This document shows positions 30,101-56,116 of a stretch of 64,000 nt of DNA, one piece after another. Both the position numbers and the translations under genes were made by a program. Origin of the DNA: Marsupella aquatica (Eukaryota > Plantae > Marchantiophyta); contig OZ316896.1 in assembly GCA_973895155.1 (NCBI GenBank), forward strand, positions 22,835,722-22,899,721, written 5' to 3'. Numbering within the stretch: the first letter of the stretch is position 1; each line of letters starts with the position of its first letter. Below the pieces are notes generated by a model. The model was not told the DNA's origin, did no database searches, and saw only the letters and a program-made list of their open reading frames with translations.

Positions 30101-32508
30101 ATAGCTCGAGCCTTCTCCGTGATAATGCTATTTGAGCGCTCTGCAATACCATTTTGCGTATGATGGTAAGGAGCTGAATGTATCATGCGACACCCCTTCT
30201 CTGCAAGGAAAGTACGAAACAGTGTGCTGCCAAATTCGGTACCATTATCACAGAAAACTTCCAAAATAGTGGATGAGTACTGATTCGCAATAGCAGCAAA
30301 GAATTGTTGAAGAACCACTACTGCTTCACCCTTGTTATGTAGACACGAGACCCATCGATAACGAGTATGATCATCAGTGATCAAAAGAAAATACTTCATG
30401 TTACCCAAACCGAGAGACGACATTGGTCCACAAAGATCAAGATGTATTCTCTGAAAAGGTTTGGAAGCACGAGTATGTTGTTCTCGACAAATGATAGCAG
30501 ATTTGGCCAAAGCACAGGGTTCCCATGGCACAAATGGAGCAGAGTCAGTAAGATGAATCCCTTGGCTCTGAATGAAATGTTTCACACCATCAATGTGTAG
30601 GTGTGCCAGGCGCCTATGGAGAGTATTAAGATTGAAGGTTTGAAGAGAGAGAGTACTGTTGAGAAGATCTGCAGCAAGAGCTGACTGAACACGGAAAACC
30701 TTAAGACCATCCACTTTGGTAACACAAGCAAACTCTTGACCGCTAGGGAGAAGGACAAATTTAGAGTGCCGGCCTTGCCAGTACACACCCCGCTGTTCAA
30801 GAAGATGTTCAGAGATAGTGTTAAGAACACTTGTAGGCATATAGCGTACATTATTTAAGCGTATTGGCCTAAATGTCTGATCAGTACACTGAACATGTAG
30901 ATCAATATTGCCATATCTAGGAGATATGATGGACCCCGCCCCGGTGTTGATGGAGATAGGATCGACGATGTATTGTTGTATTAGCTTTTGATTATTGCAT
31001 AAATGATGATTGGCTCCGGAGTCAGCGATCCAAGTATCTTGATCAATTAAAAATGCTGCTGCAAAATGAGCTTGATGCGCAAACTGAACAAAATTAAACA
31101 CATCCAGCGACACTGATTCGGTTGGAGTGGGAATTGAGGCAGTCGTCTGAACATTGTTGACACCTCGTAGCCTCTCCTGTATTCTCTGCATTGTAATAGT
31201 ATTTGGTTGCCATCCAGGTCTACGTAGATGGACATGTTTGTAGTAGCACATCTCTTCCCGATGTCGAGGCAGCCGACAATATGGACAGATTTCCTTGCGT
31301 GGTGCAGCATTAGGAAGAACAGCGCGAGTAAACGCAGGAGTTGCCACAGCCACTTGAAGTGTAGGTGGCTCGCGCTCAGTTTTACGATGCCATTCATCCT
31401 TTGCTTCAAAGATAAGAGAATCTAACGAAGGTGCATTGGTAGGATCACGATGCATTAACTCCCGCTTAGAAAAAGCCCATTGATCGAAGTGTCCATCCAT
31501 AATACGAATGAACTACATGATTTGAACTGTAGGATCAATCGTGATCCCAGCCGCGGTGCAATGATCAATAGCTTCTCGGTAAGCAATGTCGAACACTTCC
31601 ATCTTTTCCCCACGATAATGAAGTTTCACAAAATGAACCCAATTATCATGTTTCTGTAACAAACCTTGCGGTTGATAGGTCTTCTTCAAATGATCCTAAC
31701 ATTCTTTAGGCGTAGAGATGGTGGCCAAAGAAGTCTAGATATGGGGCTTACAAGTGGAGAGAATGAGCATGCGTGCATGAGCACCCTGCGCTGTGTAGGT
31801 CTCAAGCCGCGCCTGAAAATGGTAGTCACGTTCATCGACATCTTGTAACGGAGGAATGGAATCTTGTAACTTTCCAAACACTACCAGCGGCCAAGCTCGC
31901 AGAGACCAGCATTTGCCAAGCTTCGTAGTTGGCATTGCCATCAAGTTTTGGGACAAAATGAATAGTATGATCGCGATAAGAGAGTGACATGATTCCAGAT
32001 AATTGAAAAAACAGATAAGAATTCTAGCCCGAAAGAACGCAAGTTTGCACTAAAACGAAGATGTTCAAGAAGAATCAAAGAAATTCTAGGCCCATAACCT
32101 GTGATTCTACAGAACAAACAACAAAGGATGTGCAAGAACAAAAATGGTGCGCATGACAAGAGCTAGGAAAAGCAGGAATTCTATAATTCTGTATTCTGCA
32201 GATGAACTGCACAACTCCACGAAGGGGAAAGATAAAGGCCACGAACAGCCCTGCGACCAGGAGACACACAGCTAGGGCGCGGCAGAGATTCAAACCAAAC
32301 AAGGCACGTTGCCCTTGCTTCTCATTGTGGCAAGTGGCAAGTTGCACTTGGTGGAGTGCAAAAGAAAAGCTAAAAGTGAAAACGTAAGTAGGGCTAAAAT
32401 CTGATGTAAGAGTAAAACATATCTCCCTAGATAGAAAGAGATCGACGATCAGGGATCAGACTAAAGAACTGGTCGAGCAGAGAAGAGAACAGGGCATTCC
32501 CTGTCACA
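27194..32508 (-). mobile_element. Full-length but decayed Ty1/Copia LTR retrotransposon
   Basis: 409-bp LTRs at 27194-27602 and 32100-32508 (TG...CA, about 12 mismatches); TSD aaatc/aaatt with empty site gaaatcgaaac in the paralogous repeats; PPT at 27603-27612; PBS GGTTATGGGCC at 32089-32099. Confidence 0.95.
27603..31956 (-). pseudogene. Copia gag-pol polyprotein with stops and frameshifts
   Basis: Zinc knuckle CPYCRLPRHREEMC, protease WIADSGANHH, integrase HRRLAH...DLCGP...DNGTEF...NGIAERSN, RT KARFVARG/LYGLRQSPRLWY/WVDD, RNase H STSGY/DNKPAL/KHIDIQWHFVR; order PR-IN-RT-RH. Confidence 0.93.
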
Positions 32509-33597
32509 AAATTGAAACAACGCTCATCAACTATGCTCACAGAACTAATATCTTCTCCTTCTAAGGGGCGGCATTGAATGGCGAGACCCAAAAATTAGGC
32601 AGCAACAAATGAGTTTTTGAGGAAAGCTCATCCAGATTCTAATTCGATGTGACTTATAATATTCGAACCGATCATGTAGTTGAGAACACGATTTCGGACC
32701 GACCGAGAAGTGTGTCGGAGTTCTCGTTTAGCCCGATCCCCTTTTTTTTCTAAGGCAATGCAATGACCGATAAAACTAGCAAAAACTCTCCGAAACGCCA
32801 CTTTCCTCCATTGCATCGTCGTGGGAATGCAGGGAGCGATACGTGCATCGGGTTTTACATTCCGTCAGTGAAAAAGTCCGAAGTGCAAGTAACTTGGTCC
32901 GAACCGCGTAATCCAGGAACGACCACGCACTAACCCAGGTAAAGGGGAAACTTAACCATGGTTAAGGGGAAATTAACCATGGTTTAGAGCGTCTCCTATA
33001 TAAAGAGGAGCGGGCTGCCCATAAAACGTTTGCTTTCGCTAGAGCAAATATCTCCTGACTGAGAGCGAATACCAAACTCCCATAGAGTCTTACATTCCTC
33101 CCAAGCGATTCGACTCTTTCTACCGAAAACCTGATAAATTTATTGAAACAGCCATTCCTGTTCAAGTTCTCCATGTAAGACTGACTAGTCATTTAGTGTA
33201 AAATGTCCCGATCCGAGCGGACTGCGATAAATTTATCGCATTCTGCATTCCTCTGTTGCAATCATTTGATCCAGTGTTTAGAGAGGTGTTGCCTTCATTC
33301 CGATAAATTTATCGGAGTCTTCATTCCTTTCATGGAAAGAGGAGTAATTGAGAATCCGATAAATTTATCAGAGTTGTCATTTTTGTGAAAGATTGAATTC
33401 AGGGCTTAGGTGTCTGAGGAAGTCATATTTTCAATTCAAATGCGGAGTGCGATAAACTTATCGCATCCTCCTGTGAGAATCATTTTCCTTTGTTTTGTTT
33501 GGAGACTCATCTTCATCTCTGATGTCGCAGTGTTGCCGGGTTTAGGAGGCACAACGGAAGGTCGATTGCACTCCGTGGACAACAGGTATTGTGACAA

Positions 33598-33927
33598 ATG
33601 GCTGTCTTCCTTGAAAATCGTGTCAAACGTGCACGCCGGTTGTACAAGAAACTCGTGCGACTCAAAGTTCTCCCCATTGGTATAAGAGCATTGTGGATGG
33701 GTGGTACTGATCCTGGAGACAGGCAGAATCCTCTTCGCATTGAATTCTGCGGAATGAATGATGCAAGAGTTCCAATTCGTTCGAGGTTGATGTTAACGGC
33801 GTGTTTATATTCTTTGGAGTTTTCTTGTAACTATTGTTGTCGTCGTCTTGACAACAAGTACCACAAACAGGCTCACTTCTGTTGTAAGATTTGGAACGAA
33901 GACCCTTGGGTGAACCTTTCACGATGA
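33598..33927 (+). CDS. Hypothetical Cys/His-rich transposon cargo ORF (109 aa)
   Basis: ATG-initiated ORF inside the TE with CNYCC...H...HFCC; no family recognised. Confidence 0.35.
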   Translation: MAVFLENRVKRARRLYKKLVRLKVLPIGIRALWMGGTDPGDRQNPLRIEFCGMNDARVPIRSRLMLTACLYSLEFSCNYCCRRLDNKYHKQAHFCCKIWNEDPWVNLSR

Positions 33928-34121
33928 GTGTTTCGACCTTTTCATTGAGGCGCGTCTTGTAAGGACATATTTAAATAAACAAGTCCTACCCTTGCGTAGC
34001 GAATATAATACGTCACGAGTCCTAATCGTTAAACTGTCGTGCAGGGTTGGTACTATGGATGTGTTCGGTTACACCTGGTGATTGAAGGTATTTTTATTGG
34101 TGGTTTTGGTAGCTTTGCTTC

Positions 34122-34660
34122 ATGGCTGCATCGGAGAATCTAATTGTTGCAAAGATGGGATCCGTTTTAGCCCACGAGCGTAGGAAATATATTCAAGGAA
34201 AAGTGCCCGGTGTGGAATGCGGAAGTTTGTTGAATGGACTTCCCGATCAACTCGTTGAATCTCACATTTGGCCCCTCCTAGCCTTGTCTTGCACACAAGA
34301 TGAACACCTTGGCCTTGACCTAAAACTTCTACCAGAAGAACGACTGACTCGAATGAGAACAATCATTTGTCTTGGAGCCACCTCAAAGAAATGGAACCTG
34401 TTGTTGGTACACGATTTTGGGCGCTATTGAAATATGCAGTCCGTGAGATCAATGACATAAACAAAATGCTCGCAAGCATTCCTAATGCCGACCTTCTCTC
34501 AAACATACATATTGCTAGGGTCTTCCGAGAGGAAACTCATTTCCTCCCTCCCATAGATATGCTTGGGTGCTTTTCGTATGAGCAATTAGATCAGTTTCGT
34601 AGAGTTTGGATAAATCATGGAAAAAGCGGGAAGCGGACAATTCTTGCATGGCATGGATGA
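34122..34660 (+). pseudogene. Transposon cargo ORF with F-box-like motif, frameshifted
   Basis: LLNGLPDQLVESHIWPLL...LGATSKKWN resembles an F-box; continues in overlapping ORF 34367-34660. Confidence 0.45.
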
Positions 34661-34981
34661 GTCTGAGTGGATGAGGCATTGCTGCAAACATCCGATAAAT
34701 TTATCGCACTCCTCATTCCTCTAGTCAATTTTGGGTGCTCTAAGGTTTGCTCGAGAAGAGCTTGTAAAGAAACACTTTGAATGTAATTGACTCTGCCTCC
34801 CCTGACTTCGGGTTGTGTGGTCCAAAGTGTATTTGTTTGCGCCTCTTTGGACGATTAGCTGACAAGTGCATTGGCTTCACAGCCCGTTATACAAGGTACT
34901 GTAAAGTTGGATGAAACTTGTAGAATTGTAATTAGTATGTTCTCCAAAATTTATTCCTGATTTCTATTCGATGATCAGGCC

Positions 34982-35998
34982 ATGCTCGAGCGACGCATTT
35001 TTGTACCCTACTTGGATCCTCCAGAATGGGGGAATGGAGCCATGCTGGACCAACTAAGGAGGCTGGATGAGTCACTAATTTTAAAGATATGCAGGCTGGT
35101 AGTAAAACCATTTTACCATAACGCATTTCACTTCTACGTAGATCAGGTAGGGGGAGAAATTTATATTCGGTGGGATAGATATGTTGGATTTTCTAGAAGA
35201 GTTATCCTACTCTTTCTGAAAACCGGTGCAGTAAGACGTTTTATACTCCACTGCTGTCATGTTGTGAAGGGCAATCCTGCTTATGAGCCAGAATTCTATG
35301 CCGACAACAGACGTAGAGCATTTGATGAGATTCAGGATGTGATTGCTCGGGGGTTTCACTTCCACAAAAATGGCATATCACGTGCGACGAAGGATAGGGT
35401 CATTTTATTGGTTGTAAGGGAAGACTTAAGAATTTTTGTAGAAGAACAATAGGGTCTTTTAAATTCAATTTTGAAACTTATAAGAACATTAGGGCCTTTT
35501 TAATCCAATTTTTGGAATATTCTAAGAATATTCCAACTTTATAGGGGTTAAAAAATAATATTTTTTTCTTACATTTTAGGGGGTCCAAGGCCTAAAAACG
35601 TCGCAGGTGATGGGGAGGTCCCCATGTAGTGAGACCCCCGAGTGTGATTGACGAGCTGGACAATCCTCTTGCCACCGAGTTTTTTATTGACACTGGTGGG
35701 AAACTATATTCATACAAGATTCGTCAACTCCCCCCAGCCGGTCTGTGCGCTCTTTAACTTGATCTATGTAAGTTGCCTGTGGACGAACGTCCTTGCCAAT
35801 GGTGAGATCTGTCCATGCTGCACAAATGCTTGTTGTGACATTCCGTCACGCCGGTATTCAGTAGCAGTAGTGAATCCTGAGACTGGTGAAGTTGATTTCC
35901 ATTGGCTGTGGGCTTATGATCATCGCGTCACTCATATTCCCCAATGGCCCAAGAAGCGGATTGAACGCTTTGCTCTGGCGAGGTTCAACTATGATTAG
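34982..35998 (+). pseudogene. Transposon cargo ORF interrupted by a MITE; Cys-rich C-terminus
   Basis: ORF 34982 reads into the MITE at 35346; after excision it continues DELDNPLATEFF, and one more frameshift joins it to CPCCTNACC of ORF 35648-35998. Confidence 0.5.
35346..35642. mobile_element. 297-bp MITE, copy A
   Basis: TIRs CTCGGGGGT(T/C)TCACT; 8-bp TSD tgtgattg at 35338-35345 and 35643-35650. Confidence 0.92.
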
Positions 35999-38456
35999 GG
36001 TTTAGGTTTAGGGGTTAAGGTTTTGGATTTAGGGTTCCGAAGCTGATTCTTCGACCTGTACACTCGGCCGTCAATTTAAAGAAGGCTCACTTTTGCAATA
36101 ATTTTATCGGTCATTTGCATTGCGGATCTCTTTGTCCTTGTGTGATGAGATGTCGTGTCCACATGTGCTGTGAGATTGGCGGCGATAATTTTATCGCTCT
36201 TTGCATTGGAATTTGTTTATTTGCAGACTTTGCCATGGCTGCTAGTGGAAAGAGTGGATCTGCTGAGGCAGAAAGTCTCATGACAAGCCTCACCAATGCA
36301 ATTTGGACAAGTGAAGACATTTGTGAAGAGGTCAAGTGTATCAAGAAGTCATGGTACTTCCGTGACGCCAGATTACAGTCCACGGGTTTTGAAGATTGTG
36401 CTACCCCAATCCTTTGGGTCCAGTTGCAAAAATTGGCGAAGGTTAATGTTTCGTATGGCCCTGTCATTGCTGTTGCCGTCGTTGAGTTCATGGTTGGCCA
36501 CGGGGAGGGAAAAGTGTTGACAGAGGGCCTTAGTTTCTTGACAATGTGTGGGCGCAAGGGTTTCACATCTCTCATTGTTACTCTCGATAACTTTGATGAG
36601 AAATCGATGGACAGTTATCCAGAAGATCCCCTTGTTGCCGAAGTTCGGGCAGCAAGAGAGATGAATGTTATGGGTTCGGCTTGGATCGGCCAGTATGTGC
36701 AAGATTGTGATGCCATCATGCTTCCAAGGGTGAACGCAGAGTACAAGAGACTTGTGGGTGAAGAGTTCAAACCTGTCCGCAAAATTGTTTTCAAGAAACC
36801 AGGTTCAAGTGGCAGCGGTGGTTCTAATGCCGATAAAATGTCGGGGCGGAAAGAACCATTGCAATCCTCTACACATATTGACGTGGACGAACCTACAACT
36901 TCTGGTCGGGTTTTGGGAAGTGGAAGAGGGAAAGGGAGAGGTAGCGGCAGGGGAGATGCTGTGGGAACCTCTGACGGTGGGAAGAAGAGCCAGGAAACTG
37001 GCGGTAGTGGGAGAGGCCGGGGCAACCGTCAAGGACCATCCGTTAAACCAAGCAAAAATAAAGGATCCGAGGGATCCGGGCCATCTGGTTCTGGACTTAG
37101 CACAAAGAGGAAGAGGACTGGCTGGACTGAGACGATGGCTGCAGAAGTAGATAGAGCTCCGTCAATTCCATCAGTTCCAGTCGCGGTTCCTGCGGCGCCA
37201 TTGGTAAGTACTACGTTGTTGTACTGTTTAACAAATACGAAATTCGATAAAAATCTCACTGTTTATTTCCTGAATTGTGGATTGTGGAGTTATGTTGAAC
37301 AAATGCAAACTCCGATAAAAATCTCACAGTTTCTTTCCTTAATTGAATTTGCAACGCTTTTGTAGGCTGATCAGGAGGAGGAGACGGTTCTTTTGATGTA
37401 TGAGACGGACGCAATCAAGGCAGAGCTCAGTCTTCTGATGCAACAAAGGGTGCAAAGGACAACTGTGCTTCTGCATGTCGACAATCTCATATTTGATGAG
37501 GAGGGGGATTTGTCAACTTTGATTAGACCAGTGGATAGATTTCATGTGGAAAATATCAAGATACTTCTCATGAAAAACCCCACCAACTTCAGTGCCCCGT
37601 TCGTGCTGTGTGTGGATCCGAAGGATTGTCCCACAACCGCAGATTGGGACATCCTGAAGTCAAGGGTATGGAACTTGTATAGAATTATTGGAGGGAATCA
37701 TGGTGCTCGGGCAAAGTCCGAGTCGTTTAAAATATACGGGAAGCAAATATATGGTGAGCTGGAAGCTTGGGTTTACGCTGGGCTTACGAGATCCGAGGTC
37801 CGAAAGTTAGGCTTCCAGCATAACTATGACCAGGAGTATCGGAAGAACATGACTAAAATTGACCAAGTTCGCGCTTGTCACAATATTTTCCTTGAAATGG
37901 GTGTGGGCTCGACTAAAGATGTCCGCAAAGCATGTTGTCAAGAATGCATGATGGAGTACACGCCAGGAGTTCGTGACTCCATGGCCAAACATGATCCGGC
38001 TTTCCAAATTGTTTTCCGAACAGGTGAAATTTGGGATCTTCAGGAGCAGATTTTCCAGATGTGGGAGAAAGGTATTGTCTTAGGACAACCCAAAAAAATT
38101 GTGGCAACGACGAACGCAAAGGGAAAGGTAAAACCTTTGATGGTAAGGGAGATTAAAATGAATAAACTTGCTGGTGACCTCAACTTAAATTCATTTCGAG
38201 GTCTCCAAGGACTGTCAAATAAGGAGCATGTCAAGCGTCTCTTGAATAGGGTTATCGGGAAGGTGATCACTTTGGATCAAATGCACAAGGAAGGTGAGAA
38301 GTTGAAAAAGCTTGCCAAGGTGAAGAAACTATTTTTGCAGATATCTGGTCAGCCAGATTGGGCAACATGCAGAGAAATGTTTCCCAACAAAACAGATGTC
38401 TCGGTCCTTGGCATATGGGCGGAGAAATTGAATGACCCGGTAAGCATTCCTCTCAC

Positions 38457-38719
38457 AGCATGCTCTATCGCAAGATTTTTATCGGCTTTAGCATTCCTTT
38501 GTTGGTTTCTAAGCGATTGCATCTATCAGCTAGCGTGCTCCATTGCGAGATTTTTATCGGCTTTAGCATTCCTTTGTTGGTTTCTAAGCGATTGCATCTA
38601 TCAGCTAGCGTGCTCCATCGCGAGATTTTTATCGGCTTTAGAATTCCTTTGTTGGTTTCTAAGCGATTCCATCTATTGGCTAGCGTGCTCCATCGCGAGA
38701 TTTTTATCGGCTTTAGCAT
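38457..38719. repeat. 75-bp tandem repeat (about 3.5 units) in intron 2 of the ParB-MTase gene
   Basis: agcgtgctccatcgcgagatttttatcggctttagcattcctttgttggtttctaagcgattgcatctatcagct repeated. Confidence 0.9.
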
Positions 38720-39016
38720 CTCGGGGGTCTCACTATATGGGGACCTCCCCATCGCCTGCAACGTTTTTAGGCCTCGGACCCCTTAAAATGTAAGAATTTT
38801 TTTTAATTTTTTAACCCCTATAAAGTTGGAATATTCTTGGAATATTCTAAAAATTGGATTAAAAAGACCCTAATGTTCTTATAAGTCTCAAAATTGAATT
38901 TAAAAGACCCTATTGTTCTTCTACAAAAATTCTTAAGTCTTCCCTTAGAACCAATAAAATGACCCTATCCTTCATCGCACGTGATATGCCATTTTTGTGG
39001 AAGTGAGACCCCCGAG
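38720..39016. mobile_element. 297-bp MITE, copy B (inverted relative to copy A)
   Basis: TIRs CTCGGGGGTCTCACT; 8-bp TSD tttagcat at 38712-38719 and 39017-39024. Confidence 0.92.
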
Positions 39017-42000
39017 TTTAGCATTCATCTCACGCTATTCTAATTGTAGATGTGTCTGACATTTTTACAGCTGAAGATTAATTCAAAAAGGAAAAGCAAA
39101 GTGGTTCCGGCTATCACTTATAATTCTGCGGGGGAGGTTATTGTTCCCTTAGCTGAAATCCCTTATGTGTTTAAGAATTTTGTGTTTGCTGCAATCGATA
39201 AGTACAATCGGCTGAGGTCCTTAGGCGAGGGCACAGCAGAAGCGTTTGAACAAACATGGAAAAATGCAGACGGGGATTCTTTTCCCTACTATCTCCATGT
39301 TGGTGATGTTCGAATTTTGGATTCTTTTGTTCAGCCAAGGGCTTACACCCTTGCGGTTGCGGATATTCCGTATGGTTAATTTAATGCTCCTGGTTCGGAG
39401 TTTGATGAAGTGGCCTTCACAGAAAAGGACATTTTAGACATGTTGACAAGTTTCTCAAAGATGACGACCGCTAAGCAGTGGAGGTTTGTTGTGATCCATT
39501 CACTACAACAAACGCATATGGTGATGTCTGCACTGGAGAGTGTATGCAACTGTGGGGTCGAGGCTAGAATCTGGGAGAAGACTAACATTCATGAGCGTCC
39601 CGCTGGAGCTCGATTGGCGTGGGGTTTTGAGAACTGGTCGATAGGTTTCTATAGCGAGGAAGGCATTCGAAACATGGACATGTACAATTTCCAACCGGAT
39701 GAGTCTTGCGTCAATATCATCAAGGTTCCATGTGTAACCAAGAAGTCCGTTGATCCGTTGGGATTTGTTGTGAACCCGTATCAGAAGCCTGTTGGTTTGG
39801 GGGCTTGGTTTGTTTCCCATTTCTTTGAGAAAGAGGATTGGGTTATTGATCTTTGTTGTGGAACCGGATCGACATTAGCTGCTACGCTCCTCAATTCTCG
39901 CCAGGGTTGTGCTGTTGATAAGAGTTCTGCGCAGATTGATTTTATGAAATCCTGGATCATGATTCTGGAGTCAAACTGGAATTTATATGAAGAATCCCAG
40001 ATTGAAGGGCACGGCGTTGAAGGTCATGAGATTCAACCACCAATTGCAGGCCAATTGGGTGTTCTCGGGACATCAACTTACGTAGTTGAGTTCGTGAAGG
40101 AGACCGAAGAGGAACAAGAAGAAACTGAGGAAGAGCCTCCCAGAACACCAAATGAGGATGATTTCAACGACATGTTATTAGATTAGTTGCGTGTGCTCGT
40201 TAGGATAATGTCAATCACCAATGGAGTTGTCGATAAATTTATCGGATTCTGTATTCCATGAGGAAGAACCTTTGTCACCTTTATTAATGCGATAAATTTA
40301 TCGGACTTTGCATATATCGGACTATCGCGGTGTTCTAGCTGGGGGAATGGAGTTGTCGATAATCTTATCGGACTTAGCATTGTATGCTCTAATTGGTTTG
40401 TCATTGCAATTATTTCAAAAAAAAAGATATCATTATAGCTGCGGAGTACATAGTCCCAGAACGATAACCACTGTACATATTCATGGGAACGATAACCATT
40501 ATAACTTAAACCTGCAACAAGCTTCGACTATCAACGACTACAGTCTCCATTGCATTTTGAATGATTCGTCTTGTTTGTATAGGGAGAGTACTATTTGCCA
40601 ATAACACAAAGTTATACGCATAAACGGCAGTTTCTGCTAGGGACAATTCATCCTCCAGTACTTTGCTAGACGAAGCCTCTTTCTCCGGATAATATCTGCC
40701 TTCAATTGCAGACTCTTCCTCCGAATCCATTGCATACCAAGTGATTTTAATCCGCTCCGGGATGTCGTTAATTCTTGTGAGAATCTCAGTCACTTTTGCC
40801 ATCCAGAATGGTCTTCCCTTGGGATCCTGATGGGCTGCTACACATATCATTGCAAATTTAGTATTCACCTCTAGATCCTTGAAGTCTCCAATTTCTGTGA
40901 CTTTTCTTCGACTTCCGGAATACATGACTGTCCTCACACCCGCTACTTTATCAACCAAGCTAGGTTCCATTGCTGCTTTCGTAGGATTACTCGGAAGTTC
41001 TCTCTGTACGTTTACCTTGGGCCAACTCCAATCGAAACTCCATTGTGCAGGTTTCAGGTGGTGCTGAATCACTTCTTTTTGTTTGTCAAAAAAACGACCC
41101 CACCATAGACGATCTTCATCGTCAAAGTAATTGAATCCATCTTCAATTGCTCTTCGATATTTTTGAAGAGTTGACAAATAACTTTGAGCCGCCCGCTCAT
41201 CTTGTTCCTCAACATCATTCTCTTGCTCTTCATTGTCTCCTGTCGCTCCCGTGGCCGACTTCAATGCCATTTGTGGTGCAACCCACATTCCAGATGATGG
41301 AATGTACCGAACAAAATCCACTGTCTCCCCCCAATCGGTTGTCGTTGAAAGATGTTTGGCATGGAATACGGACCGAGCACTTCCATCTTCGAGTACTCTA
41401 GTAATCCAAAATTGTTTTTGAGCACTTATGCCGTGGAGAGTACGTAGAACCTGACCATCCATATCCTTGTCATTTGCTTGATCCTTGTCTGACACAAATT
41501 TCTTGAAATCGGCAACCTCGTCGACGAAAAATATCTTTGCCATAGGATTGTAGGATTCCTCTATGATTGCTGAAAGAGTGTCCAACCAGAAAGCTTTCCG
41601 CTTGTTCAATTTTGAAGAAAACTTGCTAAACATTTGATCAATTTGATCATGGGTGTGCCCCACCAATAGGAAACCAACCTTTATTTTCTGGAAAACACCT
41701 ATCTCCACCAACATATTCAAATATGCCATAAGATATTTATTCTTGTTTTCCCGAGCTGTGTTATCAAGCTAGAGGTAAAGCACTGGAGGGAACAGACCTT
41801 CCCAGGTATTCAGAATATGCTGGATAACGTGGATGGTCAGGTTGCTATCATTGTGAATATTTGGATAGTTCAAAAAAACATTTGAACTTAATTTTTTGTT
41901 GAAGATCAAACAACCCACTACATGTACGGGGATGAAATACTTTTCATCCATATTCTTCGGACACCGAATGAAATGAGGTAACTCTGTCTTCTTTTGATCC

Positions 42001-42170
42001 ATTCCATCAATACAGATGCCCAAATATTTCTCCGAATTCTTGTAACATTTGCTCCGGTGCTTTGCTAACTTCTCCCTCTCGACTGCTTGTGCCTTCCGAT
42101 GCTCGTTTAGCAATGTTGAGAATTTTCCTACAATAATAAAAATGTTTAGGACAAAACATGATAACCGCAA

Positions 42171-42335
42171 TGTTGAACCCTGACAGCGATAAATTTATCG
42201 GGTTCAGTATTCAAACACGAGACCGTAATGATAAACCCTGACAATGATAAATTTATCGGGTTTAGTATTCAAACACAAGACCGTAATGAAAAACTGTGAC
42301 AGTGATAAATTTATCAGGTTCAGTATTCAAACTTT
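42171..42335. repeat. 58-bp tandem repeat (about 3 units) in the transposase intron
   Basis: aaccctgacagcgataaatttatcgggttcagtattcaaacacgagaccgtaatg repeated. Confidence 0.85.
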
Positions 42336-43209
42336 CAAACGATATATTCACTCATATGGCCAAAGAAGAAGCACATGAATACTCAACCCGATAAAATTAT
42401 CGGGAGTAACACACAGGTTTAGAAACTTACTCTTTTCTACTTCGAGTGTTGCCTTGTCACAGAGTGCTTTGAATTCAGTACACGGGGCGCAGGTGGAGAA
42501 ACGGCTCCTTTTGGGGATGCGCACGCGAGGAAACTCCTTGTTCCAAATGCGAACAAACCACGAATATGTCATGCCTTGTTCTTGGCGCATTAGAGTTTCG
42601 GACTGGAAGGCATCAAAAACTTCTGTTTTTGTCCAATTGTCAGGTAAGTGAAAGATATCCTTGTTGGGGAGACTCTCGACATTTGTGGAAAAAAAATCAT
42701 CCAGCCATTGGACGAGACCAAGATGTGCGGGTGATTTTTCTCGACAAACTGTACCGATCTGTATCTGAGAAAACATGTTCTGCGAGATTTTTTGGAGACG
42801 ATTATTTCCTAGTGAAAATAATTTCTTAAAACCACTCCGTCAAAAGGATCTACCGCTAACTGAGTAACCACTTGCACCAGCATGCCCACCCTTCACACAT
42901 CCTCTAAGAAGGACGTTTTTCTTTGGGTAGGATAGCCCATAGTAATAAGTGCGTTGTTTTGTCACGGCTAGCAGACCCAAATTCCTCAGACAGTAATTAT
43001 CACAACACGAATACTTATGAATTTCTCTCATTTTGTTTCTATTCAATTTGTCATTTATCACATTGTCTTTCCTAGTAATTCGGTCCCTATCTTTTTTACT
43101 AGGCTCATTTGACTTCTCTACAGCCTGAAATCCGTTCATAACATTGGCATTTTTGGGTCCTTCAGGTGCCTCGCGAATAGATGCATCACTCTCTGCTGAG
43201 CTACCATCC

Positions 43210-46200
43210 TGTCACTTGCCTATCCAACGATTAATACGTGCAACCCGTACTATCCCTTGCTTAAACCGTTGGTATCGTATTACGGGGTCGTGGAGGGACG
43301 CTATTTGGAGGATTTCCACACCTAAGGATGAGTATGTTTGATTCCGCTCCCGAAAGTGTACTTTTTGATCAAGTCTACCGACTGGTCTCTCCGTTTTTGA
43401 TCAAGTCCAAGGGACTGGTCCTACCATCTACAACTCATGCCCACCGGGTGAGTGCTGTCACCACCCCCCTCCTCTCTTGGGCAAGCATACCAACATTTAC
43501 AATAAGATTTGAACTGTCGTATAGTGCTAAGTATCAAAAGTGACTCTTCTCACCTAAAACCAGGGTTTCGATCCCTTAAAGAACAGATTTCAGAATGAAT
43601 TGTATAACTTTTATCTCTCGGAGTGATTTAGAGCCCTGAACTCTATGCTGAATTCACTTTTCAACGAAAAAATCAAATAAACAAACCACCAAGTAACTGA
43701 ACTTCAGATTTATGAATCAAAGAAGAAATGAGTAAGAATTTAGAGACTACAAGCTGCTACTGCCACTCCTTCAGAAAGGATCTGGGCTCAGTATAGACAT
43801 GAAATCTGTCTCATAATTCATCAATCTCACATTTCAAAACACCAAGGTTAATGATAATGGAATTCTCAATCTAGAAGCTTTCTGGTTGCAAATGAATGAT
43901 ATGATTTAAAATGCCGTCAACATGGTTTGACGTCAGCGATGCGCAATTCAGTCAAACTCTAAACCATATTCCAGAATCAAAACAACGGTACTAACTATTC
44001 TGAGAATCAGAATTTACTTCTCATTTATCAACAACTAATCTTGAATTGGCTAGCGAATCTTGACTTCACAAGTAAGCCTAGCAGTGAATTCAATTGGAGT
44101 ATCAGAAGTCTGCAACTGAATTCAATCACCACAGGAATTTCTTGAATTCAATCTCAACTTCAATCAATACAGCTTTACTTCCATACAAAACACTCACAGC
44201 ATGCCTTGTTACAATGGAAGGAGGAGAAAACTATTCAGAAGACTTAATTCTGAATAGAGTATTAAGTCTATTTCTCTCCCCGAAAATGAGCACTCTACTC
44301 TGTCTTATAAGTGCTGGAATCCAAAAATGGAGGAGGCAAGAACAGTCGTGCCTTTCCAAGTTTAAAACTAAACAAGGGAGAAGTACAGCATAAGTACTGC
44401 CAGGGTGGCAAAATACTACTCTACTAGTAATCTACTTCAAAAAACTAAGTCTAAGTGTCGAGTGGACGCTGCTAGAAGCGTCTTAAGAAAACCAACGGAC
44501 GCTGCTCACAGCGTCAATACTAGGGTGGACGCTGCTCACAGCGTCGTGTGTTGAAGCGGACGCTTTGCACCGCGTCGGTCAAAATTCTCATAGAGTCTTG
44601 GTGGCGGTGGGGCAAAGTACACTAGGAATCGTCAGGAAAGCCGGAGATGTCAAATATTTCAATAAGTGTCCAGAACAAGTAAATGTTGGCCAGGAGGCGT
44701 CTAAAGTGTAAGTAAATCTTGAGATATGCCAAAAATAAACAAGTTTCCAGAAAAAATTGCAGGGACACCCATACCACATGAACACTAGTGACAAGGGCAA
44801 ATGTTTCCACAACGACACCGACCACACGCACTAGGGGAGGAAAACAACCAACACAAGCAACAACAAGTGACACACAAAATATTGGAACCTCAAGCCAAAT
44901 CCATATCTCTTGGTGTTTCCCGTAACACATGCAAGGACAACCCGGCCTCCTGCCGTCTGCCCAACTCCTGCCTCCCGGGGACAAGTGCTACGTTCTCCAC
45001 CTCACTACTCTGGCTTGAACTTCTCCTAATCGGTGCGCTACTCACAAAAGCTACTCCAAAGCATCCAAGTACTACGCTGAGTTCCCCCCCTCACTACTCC
45101 GGGGCTCTCCCCCTAAATACCAAAAAAACCACACCAAAGCACCCCTCATGGGGTCACAACGATGGCGGCTACCCTAGCGGCGCCGCTAAAATCCTGTACT
45201 AAGAAATCCCTAAACTAAAAAGGCATGCGGCACACACATGCTGCTAAAACCCTAAACCCTAAACAAGGGGTCGACGGTGCCTTCGACGGCGCCCCAACTG
45301 TACACAGTGAACCCTGAAATTGCAAGGCACCCCACAATGGCCGAAACTAGGTGCCCTATCAATTGTACTTTTGAGCTCACCCTTGGATAGCCCTTCTCCT
45401 CCTGATCCCGAATCACTCAACCGTACTCGCAACGGACATCGGACGCCTGAGTTATGGTCGTTTCCGTATCGCGAAAACACAATTTCGCCGGGCCATAACT
45501 TGCTCATCCTGGCTCCGTTTGAGGAGCGCCGCCTCTTGTTGGAATCAACTCCGCGAGCTCTTTCCAACAAGCCCGTGAGTGACCCCTCAAAAAAAGTTGG
45601 AAATCCAGAGGCCGTACAACCACATCCGTACGACTATCTACTCCTCCTCTTCTTCACTCTCGGTGCCCTGGCTTGTGCCCCGTGAGTGGGCCTCCTCTTC
45701 ATCACTCACGGGAGTGAGTGCCACCTCACTTTTCTTCTTCTTTACCGGGGTACTCTGCTCTAACGTCTCTACTCTGGCTGTGGCGTGCTTGAGAGAATCT
45801 CTCAATGCGTGGACTAGCTTGAGTCCCTCATGGACTCCCTCTCTGAAATCCCGTAGCTCTGCCAGGTAAACATCCGGAATGTTGTAGACCAGGGGCTTTT
45901 TCGGATCTCCCACGAGTGATTCAAGCCACTCCAACGTGTAGTCCTCATCCTGGTTTTCTTCTCCTCTATCCCCACCAGCCGACGATGATTCCTCCGTGAG
46001 CTTCCCTAAAACGGTAGTGGCAATACTCTGGATCTCCATGGTGAGAGATGATCCCGTGTCTTCCTGTCCCGGGGAACCAATCAACCCTTCTGCCCTGGCC
46101 AATACAAATGACCCCATCAAATGTACAGCCCCACCTGGTTTCACACTCCCGGGATCAGCGGCCAACAGCTTCTTCAACCCGTAGTACCACCATCCGTACA

Positions 46201-48330
46201 CATGGGCTGGGTGGTTCTTGATGTCCATAGCTACCACAAAATGCTCTTCATTCACCACCCCGGATTGCACATTGCCAAGGACCTGTTGATGAACCTTGGC
46301 CAGGAATCCCTTATAGTCAACATCCTTGACAGCGTAAAGAGGGATGGCAGTGGTTGAGGTGGGATTAATCACCCAAGTGGCCACCATCTTCAACGTGAGT
46401 TCTCCCCTAATGTGCCGAGGTGTGAATGAGAATTTCTGATTGTCCAGAAACAACAGCCTAGCCAACTCCACATGGGGCACTACACGTTTGAGACATTCAA
46501 AGTAGATTCCCTCCGTTCGTAACTCCATCCCGGCCTCAATGTCCCAGCTCTTCTCCGGAGGGATGGTAATCTCCACCTTCATGAATTTTGTAACCCCGGT
46601 GGCTTGGAAAATATTCCGACAATCCTCCATCACCTTGGCGGAGGTCTTGGGATAAATTCGACAAAAAATCCTCCTACCCACCGGTGTGGAACCTGCTGCC
46701 AATCCCATGCTCATCGTAGCTTCTCTCTCTTCTCTCTCCCTTGCAATCAAAGTCTCCACGTAGTCACGGTAAGCAGCCTTGTATCTCCGAATGCGTGCCA
46801 CACTAAACTCCGGTTGATCTAGCATTCATGCATCCCGAAATCAAATCCTCAATCACCAAATCCCGTCACCCGTAGCAATGTCAATTCCCTAGCCCAAACA
46901 GCCCCCGTAGCCCGATCAATCAATCAACCTCCTCAATTCCCTCAGAAGCCACTCCGTGCTGCTACCGCTAATGCCCGGAAGAATCATGCCAACAAGCCCC
47001 AACAATTGACCAAGAGAAAGAGCTTCCAGAATAATTGCAAAATGTGGAGAGAGCTTTCGGCAGAGCAAGAAGTCACGCAAAAAGAAGGGAGGCAAAAAAA
47101 TGAAATACAAAGAAAAGGGGAGAAAACCCCTTTCTTCACCCTTCCCAACAATCCTTTGTCCTGGCTCCCCTCACGCCATACGCCCCGGCTCGCGGCCCTA
47201 TGCAGGGCGCACACAAGCTGACACGCGGCTGTCGCTTCCCCGTTTCTCGCCCGCCGTGCCCAGTACTTGCCTCCCACTAGTCGGGGAGCATTTACTCCCC
47301 CCGTACCTCTCTGCCTTGGGCCTCCGCGCCCCCCCGTTTCCTCCTGCAGCCCCGCGCCCTCCTCCTGCTCGCGGGAGCCCTGGCTTGCCCCGGCTTGCCT
47401 CCGTACATGGCACGCGGCCCTATGCAGGGCGCACTGCCTCATTACTCCCGGCCTCAGCCTCCCATCTGTTCCTCCCGGCTGTCGTTTAGTCCCCCTCATG
47501 GGAGGGTACAGGGTGCCTCCCCTATCCCAGAGTGCTGCGCCCCTTTTGGGGGATTTAATTTTCTCCCCTGGCATCCTCTCTCACAGCCACCCCCGCTCAC
47601 GGGCTCACGGGAGGGTTTAATACCCCCCCTTTACTCCTCTTACTCCTCGGCTGCGGCCCGGCTGCCCAACTCCGAGCACCTTGGCTTGCCCCGGCTCGCC
47701 CTCTGCCAGCCTGGGGATTCCATGTGGCGGCCCTAGGGCTGCCCCTTATGGGCTCCCAAGTGCTCGCCCTCTGCCAGGCCACTTTAAGGGGCATTTAACC
47801 CCCCTCCGCGACCTCTCTGATCACCGGCCTCCTGCTACCCCGGCCTCCTCCTTAGTACTCGCGGTGTCCCATAAGGGGGAATTTTAATTCCCCCCCCATC
47901 CCCGAGCGCACCCCGGCTCCGCCGCGCCTCGCTACGGTAGCTCTTTTGGGGGGGTTTACCTCCCCTACAGCCTTACCTTAACGCTCCCCCCGGTGGCGCC
48001 TCGCTTTTCCCTTATTCCGTAAAGGTTAGCACTCCTCCTAATCCTTATTTGGGGTCTCAACGAAAGAAAGAGGGAATCAGGGCCTAAGGGAAATAGGGGG
48101 TCCACTTAGACCGACCCTAGTTTCAAGGTCCCAACATCCTGGCTTACTGGGAAGCCATAGGCCTCCAAACTATTAGGATATCAAAGAATGTCAAGACCTC
48201 CTGGGCATAGCAACCGATAATGACGGTCGTAACAAAAAAACAAAAAAACGGCTTATTTACAATGGTTATTTACACTCACAACACCCCGCGACCATTATTC
48301 GTGATTTTGAGTGACGGGGACCCCGTCACA
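43210..48330. mobile_element. 5.1-kb nested insertion, probably a very long solo LTR
   Basis: TGT...ACA termini; perfect 5-bp TSD catcc at 43205-43209 and 48331-48335; no terminal direct repeat or pol motifs seen. Confidence 0.8.
45638..46825 (-). CDS. Uncharacterised 395-aa ORF inside the solo LTR
   Basis: Intact ATG-initiated ORF with a coiled-coil-like segment, basic PVKKKKSE and an acidic tail; no family recognised. Confidence 0.55.
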   Translation of the reverse strand: MLDQPEFSVARIRRYKAAYRDYVETLIAREREEREATMSMGLAAGSTPVGRRIFCRIYPKTSAKVMEDCRNIFQATGVTKFMKVEITIPPEKSWDIEAGMELRTEGIYFECLKRVVPHVELARLLFLDNQKFSFTPRHIRGELTLKMVATWVINPTSTTAIPLYAVKDVDYKGFLAKVHQQVLGNVQSGVVNEEHFVVAMDIKNHPAHVYGWWYYGLKKLLAADPGSVKPGGAVHLMGSFVLARAEGLIGSPGQEDTGSSLTMEIQSIATTVLGKLTEESSSAGGDRGEENQDEDYTLEWLESLVGDPKKPLVYNIPDVYLAELRDFREGVHEGLKLVHALRDSLKHATARVETLEQSTPVKKKKSEVALTPVSDEEEAHSRGTSQGTESEEEEE

Positions 48331-49489
48331 CATCCTCTATAGATCTCCTTGACGCATTTAGAGGGGCACTGAATAGACGACTATAACTATTCTCTTCGAC
48401 AGCTCCTTCTAAACATTCAGACACAACTTGTGCTATTATATCGGATTCTCTATCTCCTTCCTCATCTTCGTCCTCCGATGCACTCGACTCATCTGAAAAC
48501 ACAATTGGACTCCGTGGCTCTCTATACATAACCCGAACGCCACTAAGACCTCTCCTCGATACTTGGAGCCTGGAACCAATGATAGTCCGCCCTTGAGAAC
48601 TTGGAGATTCTGGATTCGCACGTGCAGTCCCAACGACTCCGCGAGCTGCTGGAAAATTGAGCACTTGTTCACCACGATTCCCACGAACCATTCGAGAAAG
48701 GGCCGAGTCTGGACTTCGCAGTCTGATTCCCTTGCTTGCTCGCACATCCAGTCCAGGCAATGCAAAGACCGATCGCCGTATCAGTCTTTGTATTTCTGTG
48801 TTCCGATCCTTACCTGGAGACTGAAAGATCCGTCGTTGAACTTGTGTTGAATGTGGCGACTTGATTGCCGACTGCGATACGCGTATCGGTCATCGGATAC
48901 CCTCTCCATAACCCAGGATGGATGGCTTGAAGCGATGTCTCGGACCTAAACCTGGGATTGAAAGTTTCTCATTTCTTGGCGATGGAACGCTCAAGAGACG
49001 ACGCTTCTCAGGTTTACTAGGCGACACATAGTAAGCACTGGGCTTAGGACCAGAACTTGCATCAGAATCTGAGTCAGAGATTTCGGGCACTATTTGCTGT
49101 GAGAGAGGTAGAGCTTTAAGTATGCGACTTGGCAAACAGCGAGCGACAAGATTAGGAGAGGATTCAACTGAACTGGAAGGAGAATCTGTGTCTGATTGAG
49201 ACATGGCTATTCGAGACACTATGGGGCTTTGCATTCCTCCCGCAATCAGGGAAAACGAAAGGCTCAACGGACAAAATGTTGCTCCAAGAACACAACTCCC
49301 AAAACTCTACTCTCGATAATGACGCCAAAAACTTATCGGCGGTGGCCCTTTTATAGTGTCTATTGAGGGGTTGGCCCACGTGTCCACTTTTGATTGGCTG
49401 TCACCCTAAACGACAAAATAGCAGAAAAGGGTATATTTCTTGGATTTCCAATTTCATTCTCACACGTGCATCGTGGCAAAATTATATAG

Positions 49490-49705
49490 TTTTGAAATTG
49501 AAGCGATAAATTTATCTAATGTTGGTATTGCAAAAGTGGTTCCTTCATATGGAAGTTGCAATTTGAAATTGAAGCAATAAATTTATCTGATGTTGGTATT
49601 GCAAAAGTGATTCCTTCATATGGAAGTTGCAATTTTGAAATTGAAGCGATAAATTTATCTGATGTTGGTATTGCGAAGAGTTTTCTTCATATGGATAGGA
49701 ATTTT
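49490..49705. repeat. About 71-bp tandem repeat (3 units) in the right subterminal region of the TE
   Basis: tttgaaattgaagcgataaatttatct...ggtattgcaaaagt...catatggaagttgcaa repeated. Confidence 0.85.
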
Positions 49706-51166
49706 GAAATTTAACCGATGAACCGAAGGATCTTAGTATTATCGACTAGTATTTTTGTCGCCCGTATTTTCGATAATTTTATCGGACTGCGCATTGCTGT
49801 TGAAAGAATGGCATGTTGACTATATGGTCACTTGCGGAGGTAACTGGTCAATTGCGGAGGTAACTGCAAGGTAAGTTTGACGAACCGTGCAGTAATTCTT
49901 ATCGACTGTGATGTAAAATATTTTTGGTAAATATCCAAAAACTGAGAAAACTGAGATTGGGTCGGAGCTTTCGTGGCTCAAATCCGGAGTCCGATACAGT
50001 TATCGCACTTGGCTCGAAACGTGGATATGGATTTATAGATAAGACCTTTCATATATCTTCGGAGAGCGTGAATATGAGGTTGAGGAGAAAGTTTTTCGGA
50101 TCTAATTGTTCCTTGATAATATGAATGTTTGTTAGTATGAATTTCATTGGTTTTGATCATTATTAAATTTGCTGTTTCAATCCGAACTCCGATACGAATT
50201 ACATTATTTCCCCAAAAATGTGTTTTTGATGAAAAAAACTGTCGATTTCGCGAGATTCGGCGGAAAATGAAAATACACTTCTCGTTTAGAGGAAATAGTT
50301 CTCGTTCGGTCCGAAATCGTGATTGAGGTACTTAGGGTAAATGGTGAGCAAATCCCCCCTTGTCTAGTCCTTCAGATTGGGGCTGGCACTTTGTGGTGTC
50401 TATGAGCAGTACTGTATTATTTATACAGAGTCGTTTCTGACTGAGATGCTTGTTCGAATATCAGAGTAAGGATTTATATGTTGCCCAAGAACGGAAATAC
50501 ATGTAGAGATCGGGGCAAAGTTTCAACCTGAAAACAAGCTGCAAAATGCTGTAGCGTCCTTTGACAACAACTAGAAGACGACTTGTTATTGCTTAAAGCA
50601 CACGTGCCACTAGAAAAGCCCCATTCCATGTCTCATTACTCACCATAAAAGGTGGAACACTAAGCACCTTTTATGGAACACTTGCTAATGAAAGGTTTTG
50701 CACTCACCACTTCTGTGCAGCTCAAAGCACATTCTTGACCGTGTGCATCTTACAATGAGAGCTAGGGGCCCGTAGCCGTTTATAGGGGCAGTTGTGGTTT
50801 AACAAACCACGCACAGCAACGTACTCTGAGCTGAACAACGAGTGGCTTAACGCAACTAACCTCAAGAGTCCTCTCTCGATAGCCTCTGGTATATTACTAA
50901 AAATTTGCTTTGACACGTCGAGCGTGTTCTTTCAGTTGTGACCAGCCTCTTTTTGTTTGTGCATGGCTAAAACGCTTGGTGAGTCCCCGGTTGTTCTATC
51001 CAAGAGCTTTCAAATGCAAACGTTTGACCATTTCTGCAAAACAAGATTGTCTAGTCAACTGTCTAGCTGGGTCGACAGACTGTCTCCAGTAAATTAGAAA
51101 ACAAATTGAAGAATGACGAGATTCTTATGAGTTTCGCCGACTTGGGATCCTTTTGAGCGGGAGTCT

Positions 51167-55057: not shown

Positions 55058-56018
55058 GCAGCTGCTGCACAAGTTGGGCCAAATCATTCAAGGGCATAGG
55101 CCGGTTCTTTCTTCGGAACTTATCCGCCTCCTTTGTCAAGAATGTTCGATCTGTAGTTGATAGAACAGGAGATCGATTTCCTGGCTGATAAGATTTACGT
55201 AGACCAGCATGAGGTTTGTTTCTTTGTTGAGATCCATTTCAAATCTTTCTCAATCAAGGGTCAGTCGTCAGTATATTATACTTTCTCCCATTCCATTCGA
55301 CCTTGTTTGATACTTCGCATGGAGAACAGATTTTTGAGCAGGTACAATTGATGCTGATTCAATCCAGTGGAATCATTAATTTCGTTGATTAAATGCTTTA
55401 TTGTGTTGATCATACCTCTGCTGCAATCTCAGTTCTCAAGAGTCCAAGTGACAGCTCATAGCCGTAGAGCTTTTCATCGTAGGTACACAGATGTTCAATA
55501 TACATATGGAGGAAGCTGCACGCTCAATTACGAATCCTAAACCGCTTGATCGGAAAGGTTTGAACACTCTGTAGAATGTGCCAGAGCTGAAATACGTTAA
55601 GCATAGGCTGCTCGGGGATTTTGCTTCATCTCCTTGGTCTTGTTGTGCCGGGCTTGTGGTCTCTGGGCGAGGATTGTCCTGAGAATTGGCATCCAACAGA
55701 GGAGCGGTCCGAGCTAGCTGGGGAGAAAGAATTGGGGATAATTTGGGGCAATCAATTTTGGTCAACCTTGGCGCTTGACTGGTGGCTATTACCGTTCTTT
55801 GGTGTGCTGCTTCGTGCTTCAGCAGGGGAGATCGGGAGCCAGGTGCAAACATGCTCTGACCGGGGCTCTGATGAAGTTTTCTCGGGGAGGTTCTGGTGCT
55901 TCTCCTGACTGGGCACTATTGGGTGGCATTGCCTATGATGCTTTGTGGGCTCCCAAGCCCCGTCGTGGTTGTTCTGATTGGTGCATGGAGTTAGTGTTAG
56001 AGTCAGAGACTTAAGTCT

Positions 56019-56116
56019 GTTTAGGGTTTAGGGTTTGAACCCAGAACTGATTGGTGCATGGAGTTAGTGGTGAGTTAGTGGTACAGTCAGAGACTTAAGT
56101 TTGTTTAGGGTTTAGG
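56019..56116 (+). repeat. Telomeric TTTAGGG filler plus local duplication at a deletion junction
   Basis: gtttagggtttagggttt (56019-56036) and gtttagggtttagg (56103-56116) replace about 270 bp present at 12901-13171. Confidence 0.75.

Follow-up and report, generated by a model that had tools for sequence, protein, structure and literature searches.

What reads a palindrome that recurs along one transposon and is missing from the DNA around it? The question is raised by a 64,000-nucleotide stretch of the liverwort Marsupella aquatica (Eukaryota; Plantae; Marchantiophyta; assembly GCA_973895155.1, contig OZ316896.1, positions 22,835,722 to 22,899,721 of the forward strand), hereafter the window, whose positions are numbered from its first letter. 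It contains a giant DNA transposon with a transposase gene and, on the opposite strand, an accessory gene whose predicted product combines a ParB-like fold with a DNA methylase (Table 1). Herein, we describe the palindrome as the core of a longer, asymmetric unit that the element repeats in its non-coding gaps, and show that related transposon families keep palindromes at the same positions while the word itself changes. These sites may be the marks by which a protein of the element, most likely the ParB-like methylase, recognizes the element's own DNA.

A palindrome confined to one transposon

The palindrome CGATAAATTTATCG was found in six exact copies, at 33225, 33301, 34693, 40231, 40290 and 42187, precisely where an earlier note on this DNA had placed them, and 0 of 100 dinucleotide-preserving shuffles contained any. 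When up to two mismatches were allowed, 20 sites were obtained between 33132 and 50005 (0.20 expected), among them all 14 variants with one or two mismatches that the note had listed. The pattern CGATA-N4-TATCG occurred 13 times, against 0.02 expected. The extension of the copies at 33225 and 33301 to perfect 18-bp palindromes was verified as well, as were the half-site variants, namely CGATAAAAATCTCA at 37245 and 37313 and C[GA]AGATTTTTATCG at 38471, 38546, 38621 and 38696.

A decay-tolerant pattern, in which CpG decay and a T/G arm variant were allowed, had 25 matches, all of them in the element; neither the 46 kb of flanks nor any of its three nested insertions contained one. With a 25-nt weight matrix, 41 strand-hits were obtained in the element, corresponding to approximately 29 distinct sites, against none in the other 46 kb of the window. 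The same matrix had 7 matches on 300 kb of related metagenome loci. The sites had also been described as non-coding. This stood for the nested insertions and the flanking DNA, which hold none, but the statement that no site falls in an exon is true for 28 of the approximately 29: a weak variant, CGATACGCGTATCG at 48875, lies within the open N-terminal frame of the transposase. In a viral contig collection, the exact 14-mer was single at each listed locus (80 listed of at least 120 loci) and formed no arrays, and Rfam gave no match within 32000-51000.

The site is a 25-nt asymmetric unit

Alignment of 27 sites revealed that the plain 14-bp palindrome of the earlier note is too short a description, since the site is longer and asymmetric. 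The unit reads CGATAAATTTATCG-G-a-t-T-T-n-G-c/t-A-T-T, that is, the core is followed on one side by an 11-nt 3' extension, GnnTTnG[C/T]ATT, whereas the opposite flank is nearly information-free; the flanks of the unit hold approximately 0.1-0.4 bits per position. In some copies (e.g. 40231 and 40357) a mirror arm is also present, giving AATG-N7-core-N7-CATT, and the ancestral site may have been a two-tier palindrome of 36 nt, in which about 11 nt, approximately one helical turn, would separate the centres of the outer and the TATCG arm. About 20 of 29 units are on the plus strand, with the copies within one array being non-independent.

Most of the variants that the note had counted as mismatches turned out to be decay of CpG to TpG or CpA: TGATA, TATCA, CAATA and TATTG are transitions at the two CpGs. 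Positions 33132 and 33144 read C in family copies of three other organisms, and 33370 reads G in two (X1 and X5), indicating that these sites are perfect palindromes elsewhere. Among family copies of the left arm, the core changes at CpG only; 0 of 50 non-CpG core positions were variable versus 17 of 331 spacer positions, which is a weak test because about 2.6 changes were expected.

The tandem arrays have periods of 56-93 bp and unrelated spacers, and what they share is the 14-nt core together with the 11-nt extension, indicating selection on the unit and not on the repeats that carry it. Array copy number differs between family copies, as seen from joints in other copies. A layout common to three of the larger arrays (33132-33463, 42187-42402 and 49504-50005) was also observed, in which three or four units of the same orientation are closed at the right end by a single inverted unit (33450, 42389 and 49992, respectively).

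Sites are distributed along the whole element

Eight arrays were found (Table 1), which occupy the subterminal arm at each end, the introns of the two large genes and the spaces between genes. When the nested inserts were removed, the gaps between successive arrays were 1410, 1141, 1140, 1304, 1405, 1995 and 2329 bp, with an average of approximately 1.5 kb. This spacing is even, with a coefficient of variation of 0.275 that was reached by 170 of 100,000 random placements.

Related families keep the positions and change the word

As relatives, we used 65 metagenome loci encoding transposase relatives. The exact motif of the window was absent from all 65 loci. Three of them, L001 and L002 (transposases 62-63% identical to that of the window) and L006 (55%), carry CGAGACCGGTATCG, CGATACCCGTCTCG or CGATACCGGTATCG. 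In L001 and L002, the words CGAGACC[G/A/T]GTATCG and CGATACCC[G/A]TCTCG occupy two places, the homologous intron and the DNA beyond the transposase stop codon, with outer GAATAC...GTATTC arms at several sites, and in L006 two perfect copies of CGATACCGGTATCG stand behind the transposase stop codon. Compared with the window, CGA[T/G]A / T[A/C]TCG persists as the arms and the outer arm persists as well, and the centre has changed from AATT to CCGG.

The position homologous to array E, behind the transposase stop, holds sites in L001, L002 and L006. The intron of array F holds palindromes in L001, L002 and L007, and none was seen in the visible part of the homologous intron in L003 and L004. The palindrome of L007 (transposase 42% identical) is a different one, CATGATATCATG, present seven times, mostly in pairs, with one copy in that same intron; L023 carries five copies of TAGATCTCCTATCTA in a 44-bp array. 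Palindromes with a changed word thus recur in relatives at matching places in introns and between genes, which argues for function.

The gene arrangement also has counterparts. In L001 the methylase gene is convergent with the transposase gene, and in L007 a relative of the ParB-like family is divergent from it. Between these divergent genes (735-765 of L007) lies the palindrome CACGATTTTGCGAAATCGTG, which resembles the tip of the window element, CACGATTTCGG, though the array palindromes of the two differ. On a 15.5-kb contig (L013), inverted copies of the transposase N-terminal exon at 2407-2974 and 9307-9874 suggest two elements head to head.

The accessory gene is predicted to encode a ParB-like fold joined to a methylase

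The product of the three-exon accessory gene has approximately 1,060 predicted residues. Exon 1 (36236-37203) belongs to no known family. For exon 2, no match was found in Pfam, in a PDB sequence search or in the ESM Atlas, and its ParB fold was seen by folding alone. The exon-2 model, with a predicted local distance difference test (pLDDT) score of 82, matched structures of the ParB/Noc/KorB group (Foldseek, 7bnr_A, E 1.8e-5; VIA, 7bnk_B, Z 11.3 with 179 of 193 residues aligned). Its N-terminal domain alone matched 7bm8_A with a VIA Z of 10.5 and a root-mean-square deviation of 2.2 Å over 99 residues. The whole-chain alignments span ParB residues 37-229, that is, the N-terminal domain and the helical domain that follows it. 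At its nucleotide-binding motif, GGNHGARA, the exon-2 protein reads YRIIGGNHGARA, and G110, H112 and A116 are nearly invariant among 25 relatives.

An exhaustive protein search yielded 140 exon-2 relatives, including longer ones that a word-index protein search did not return. Those with named sources come from Chara braunii, the liverwort Riccia sorocarpa, Ginkgo biloba and the sea cucumber Holothuria leucospilota. Of the longer relatives, 32 were scanned, and an N6_N4_Mtase domain was present in 8, which include proteins named from Chara, Riccia, Ginkgo and Holothuria. When the alignment of the relatives was used for a PDB profile search, it recovered the methylase part only, and weakly (M.MboIIA and M.RsrI). 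The earlier note had labelled the product a ParB-MTase, and this label is justified because the exon-2 fold matches ParB, Noc and KorB; the in-phase junction to the N6_N4 methylase exon and the fusion in 8 of 32 relatives are in agreement with it.

Exon 3 corresponds to an N6_N4 methylase, with a Pfam score below threshold in the window and above threshold in L001. It has an in-frame TAG at 39377-39379, a motif IV that reads D-I-P-Y-G, and motif I in C-terminal position. Motif IV of the D-x-P-Y type is associated with N6-adenine methylation. The form D-x-P-Y-G was also found in 7 of 27 relatives checked, and the predicted methylase product points to an N6-adenine enzyme. We also considered an N4-cytosine methylase, as in Marchantia DN4MT1, which carries TSPPY (bioRxiv 10.1101/2021.02.12.428880); it is disfavoured by the D-x-P-Y-G motif of the window and the seven relatives.

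Candidate readers of the sites

Position and architecture that persist while the word turns over, confinement to the element, placement in every non-coding gap and the dynamics of the tandem repeats together argue for a cis-acting site that is read by a co-evolving protein of the element itself. The earlier note had proposed a binding site for a dimeric protein, either a parS-like loading site for the ParB-MTase or a transposase site. Binding by an element-encoded dimer fits all the evidence, including the palindromes kept at the same positions in relatives, and the description as parS-like holds by analogy only. We give somewhat less than an even chance to the proposal that the element recognizes itself at these units through a dimeric binder that it encodes, most likely its ParB-like methylase. 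ParB, Noc and KorB bind palindromes of approximately 13-16 bp as dimers. The ParB-like methylase is favoured as the reader for its fold, which is that of palindrome-binding dimers, for the coverage of the whole element, for the conserved cluster E and for the same idea having been proposed for algal elements (see below).

If so, the transposon would repeat a recognition site of approximately 25 nt in all its non-coding gaps, and a dimer of its own ParB-like-methylase protein, rather than its transposase, would bind the palindrome core. Binding could then lead to methylation of the whole element, predicted to be N6-adenine, to its regulation, or to spreading of the protein along it. The outcome might be self-recognition or anti-silencing, as with VANC on VANDAL or KorB on RK2. 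A true parS-like system would go further: the dimer would load at palindromes about every 1.5 kb, spread or slide, lay adenine methylation on exactly its own DNA and, by an epigenetic mark that the element addresses to itself, shield it from host silencing. The reader and its address, namely the centre and the outer arms of the palindrome, would evolve together, and no family would mark any copies but its own. We consider this complete version unlikely.

Several observations weigh against the ParB-like methylase as the reader. The Pfam ParB model matched neither the window protein nor any of 32 relatives, and the helical domain of exon 2 alone, the part where a DNA-binding helix-turn-helix would lie, matched the Spo0J-parS structure 4umk_A weakly (Z 5.9). 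The ParB nucleotide motif is GERRxRA, and the GGNHGARA found in its place makes ParB-style clamping and sliding with cytidine triphosphate appear doubtful. Exon sizes may account for part of the even spacing of the arrays. Two palindromes of L007 lie inside the open N-terminal frame of its transposase. In the window, the two subterminal arms, the classical place of transposase-binding repeats, account for 12 or 13 of the sites. A unit of 25-36 nt is longer than one helix-turn-helix dimer needs, and a second reader may be involved. Among the loci with context long enough to judge, none had the transposase without the ParB-like gene or the reverse, so co-occurrence cannot separate the two candidate binders. 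Finally, this copy of the element is dead, with in-frame stops in all three genes, and its own activity is uninformative.

If the transposase were the reader, the units would be subterminal repeats on which a transposition complex assembles, as in En/Spm, Ac and Mutator, and the internal copies would be transposition enhancers or sites of self-regulation. Arrays do lie approximately 80-790 bp from the left end and 320-830 bp from the right end, and the palindrome is the sole multi-copy word common to both arms besides the tips. The transposase's own intron holds a cluster in the window and in three of the five closest relatives whose intron was read (L001, L002 and L007; not L003 and L004), and the conserved, cysteine-rich N-terminal region of the protein could read DNA; sequence-specific regulation of their own copies by transposases is described in a recent report (bioRxiv 10.64898/2026.08.24.746577). 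However, 16 of the approximately 29 sites are at least 2 kb from both ends, including the mid-element cluster between the 3' ends of the genes, which is conserved in L001, L002 and L006. The asymmetric extension points in the same direction at both ends, with no mirroring, and the outermost 80-300 bp of each arm have weak sites or none. The tip-like word CACGATTT is also present in L007, where it is not shown to be an element end, together with wholly different palindromes, which hints at separate readers, evolving differently, for the ends and the palindromes. With arrays present in both subterminal arms, the transposase is the main competing candidate, although on the unlikely side in our judgement.

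Transcriptional control by host factors, for example of the GATA/I-box or MYB-related type, would explain the sites just upstream of the accessory gene ATG (36096 and 36183) and those upstream of the transposase gene; GATAA and AGATTTTT also resemble plant cis-elements. Yet no copy of the motif falls in the 46 kb of host DNA, where eight or more host genes or gene copies lie, introns and the spaces between gene 3' ends hold many of the sites, one orientation is kept regardless of the direction of the neighbouring gene, and the word changes wholly between related families, unlike the site of a host factor, which makes promoter control a very unlikely account. The least probable of the explanations considered is that of functionless minisatellites spread by duplication and conversion. 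The arrays are indeed tandem and variable in copy number between copies, and tandem repeats are common in the non-coding DNA of transposons. Neutral spread is disfavoured by the same unit being kept across arrays with unrelated spacers, by palindromes at homologous positions in families whose non-coding DNA is otherwise unlike (compared by eye, unaligned), and, as a weak test, by the left-arm core that varies at CpG only. In a variant of this account the palindromes would serve as hairpins or cruciforms; we set it aside in view of the weak stems (-4.7 to -9.2 kcal/mol), of which one out of three differs from shuffles.

Transposase gene, element ends and nested insertions

The transposase matches Pfam DUF7869 (E 3.8e-32) and has an in-frame TAG at 41766-41768, where relatives read Q. 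Named relatives come from a fern, sea urchins, oyster, coral and sponge. The leading Foldseek matches of the transposase model (pLDDT 75) are all RNase-H-like and all weak (NurA, PIWI, RNase H and retroviral integrases), and the IstA transposase 8b4h_A also matches weakly (E 2e-3, probability 0.96); as modelled, the protein is a DDE-type transposase with an RNase-H-like fold. In Pfam searches at E up to 5 with 14 transposase relatives, no link to any named transposase family was found. DUF7869 as a full-text literature term returned no papers, and the viral contig collection yielded no transposase relative.

The tip CACGATTTCGG occurs in the window at the two element ends only, and the match of a contig from another organism ends exactly at 50321. 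The family is abundant in two other organisms, with depth roughly even along its length. According to a paper citing Bao 2009, the hallmark of Sola1 is a 4-bp AWWT target-site duplication (PMC3845634). No AWWT duplication was found at this one old copy, which is flanked by AGAA and ATTG. The flanking 8-mers GTTGAGAA and ATTGAGGT are alike at 5 of 8 bases, a possible decayed 8-bp target duplication. A link to Sola1 would rest on the Ectocarpus parallel described below and, with no AWWT duplication seen at this copy, is not established.

In the left arm, a 22-bp tandem repeat with the palindrome AACCATGGTT (32931-32984) was found just upstream of a TATAAA-like box (approximately 33003), and the left accessory gene may have its promoter here.

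A single 297-bp miniature inverted-repeat transposable element (MITE), present twice, accounts for two of the three nested insertions. We also considered whether the 297-nt inverted repeat could bound a nested element that encloses the ParB exon; the empty-site joints ruled this out and indicated two separate small insertions. In two organisms, the bins that contain these MITE copies had a depth of approximately 10,000-74,000, at least ten-fold above the neighbouring bins. The third insertion, of 5,126 bp, is GC-rich and has no internal long direct repeats, and its open frames have no Pfam match; it looks like a very large solo long terminal repeat. Some copies of it elsewhere lack a further 1,269 bp (43510-44778).

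The flanking host DNA is plant-like, with Kelch-repeat genes (FKB95 Kelch-repeat model, below cut-off), an ABCG transporter, a P450 and a Copia element. A segmental duplication of approximately 95% identity (9586-16504 versus 53354-59457) comprises a Kelch-repeat gene and an ABCG transporter gene, with the transposon between the two blocks, and a third Kelch copy is located at 21015-22764. Fragments of a Copia-type retrotransposon with reverse transcriptase and integrase frames (28003-31512, minus strand) lie 1.2 kb left of the element.

Table 1. Features of the transposon, in window positions
Feature	Position	Strand	Description
Whole DNA transposon	32687..50321	.	17,635 bp; ~11.9 kb minus the three nested insertions; bounded by terminal inverted repeats
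Left terminal inverted repeat	32687..32716	+	Begins CACGATTTCGGACCGA; first 16 bp perfect versus the right end
Array A	32757..33474	+	Left subterminal arm; weak sites at ~32768 and ~32837; 33132, 33225, 33301, 33357 and inverted 33450; 56-93 bp spacing
Left accessory gene	34122..35998	+	No Pfam match; F-box-like stretch by eye; interrupted by a small nested insert
Array B	34693..34717	+	One perfect site, in a gap or intron of the left accessory gene
Nested MITE copy 1	35346..35642	.	297 bp; absent from other copies (joint 35337>35643); 8 bp shared at the empty site
Array C	36096..36207	+	Two sites (36096, 36183), 40-140 bp upstream of the ParB-like-methylase gene ATG (36236)
ParB-like-methylase gene (predicted, three exons)	36236..40186	+	Exon 1 36236-37203, exon 2 37366-38439, exon 3 39050-40186; GT/AG junctions, phase 0
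Array C'	37234..37338	-	Two inverted CGATAAAAATCTCA variants within intron 1 (37204-37365)
Array D	38457..38719	+	75-bp tandem repeat, 3.5 units, with four CGAGATTTTTATCG variants, within intron 2
Nested MITE copy 2	38720..39016	.	Opposite orientation, in intron 2; 94% complementary; joint 38711>39017, 8 bp shared at the empty site
Array E	40220..40381	+	Three sites in the gap where the methylase and transposase genes converge, between their stop codons
Transposase gene	40548..49306	-	DDE exon 42129-40548; N-terminal exons 43211-42432 and 49306-48326; split by the 5.1-kb insertion
Array F	42164..42402	+	58-bp repeat x3 (42164-42332) and one inverted site; nearly fills the transposase intron 42431-42130 (minus strand)
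Nested insertion	43205..48330	.	5,126 bp; TG...CA ends; 5-bp duplication CATCC; joint 43204>48331; no motif copies
Array G	49490..50016	+	Right subterminal arm, upstream of the transposase gene; 71-bp repeat x3 (49490-49719), 49771 and inverted 49992
Right terminal inverted repeat	50292..50321	-	Mate of the left repeat

Comparison with known systems

Transposons with ParB-like and DNA methylase genes have been reported just recently, in brown, red and green algae, and the reports cited below name no defined site. The window provides a concrete candidate address for such a protein, namely a 25-nt unit at regular intervals over the whole element. The idea of self-marking is thereby directly testable with one oligonucleotide and one recombinant domain and, if true, would describe a natural sequence-addressed methylation module.

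Among bacterial systems, ParB/parS, Noc/NBS and KorB/OB likewise use palindromes of 14-18 bp in many copies on one element. KorB has 12 operator sites scattered between the genes of plasmid RK2. The N-terminal domain of the exon-2 protein superposes on ParB as described above, with the helical domain next to it. Unlike bacterial ParB systems, the element has no Pfam match to a ParA-type ATPase among its open frames, carries GGNHGARA as nucleotide motif and has a methylase in place of the C-terminal dimerisation domain; it is a eukaryotic nuclear element with introns, and its site has an extra asymmetric 11-nt arm.

The plant elements En/Spm (with TnpA 12-mers) and Ac resemble it in the many copies of a short word in both subterminal regions. 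In En/Spm, the protein that binds the word belongs to the element but is not catalytic, and the sites also control the element promoter. The repeats of En/Spm and Ac are confined to the terminal few hundred bp, whereas more than half of the sites in the window are internal.

Another parallel is VANC21 on VANDAL21, a Mutator-like element of Arabidopsis, for which the same site pattern has been shown by experiment, with motifs often in tandem repeats and varying between relatives (PMC5735166). In both cases, a tandem-repeat motif gains and loses units and differs between families, and the VANC binder is an accessory protein of the element. However, VANC is a DUF1985/DUF287 protein that has no enzymatic domains and causes loss of cytosine methylation, whereas the candidate binder in the window combines a ParB fold with a methylase. 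The VANC motif is a non-palindromic 9-mer, and that of the window is palindromic. As Pfam found no DUF1985/DUF287 match in the element, it would at most work like the VANC system and is not a member of it.

The nearest counterparts are algal. Ectocarpus Sola1-1_Ec32 has a ParB-methylase gene of 1104 amino acids on the strand opposite the transposase (PMC12477816), and the Bostrychia Plavaka elements (PAG2/PAG3) have tandem inverted-repeat arrays beside ParB-domain genes (bioRxiv 10.1101/2025.02.11.637652). In these reports, binding and modification of the transposon by the protein it encodes have already been proposed (PMC12477816; bioRxiv 10.1101/2025.02.11.637652). The window shares with them a giant cut-and-paste element, an accessory gene opposite the transposase that combines a ParB-like part with an N4/N6 DNA methylase, and inverted-repeat arrays next to the ParB-domain gene. 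Bostrychia differs in having two genes, one with the ParB domain joined to a 2OG oxygenase and the other with the methylase joined to a SET domain. The element in the window differs from the algal ones in its plant-like (streptophyte type) host and in having sites in all non-coding gaps, introns included, not just beside the gene. Accessory genes of the ParB-methylase kind, and arrays of inverted repeats next to genes with a ParB domain, have thus already been published for algae; what the window adds is a unit defined by its sequence, which covers the entire element, introns included, and co-varies across families, together with a plant-like host.

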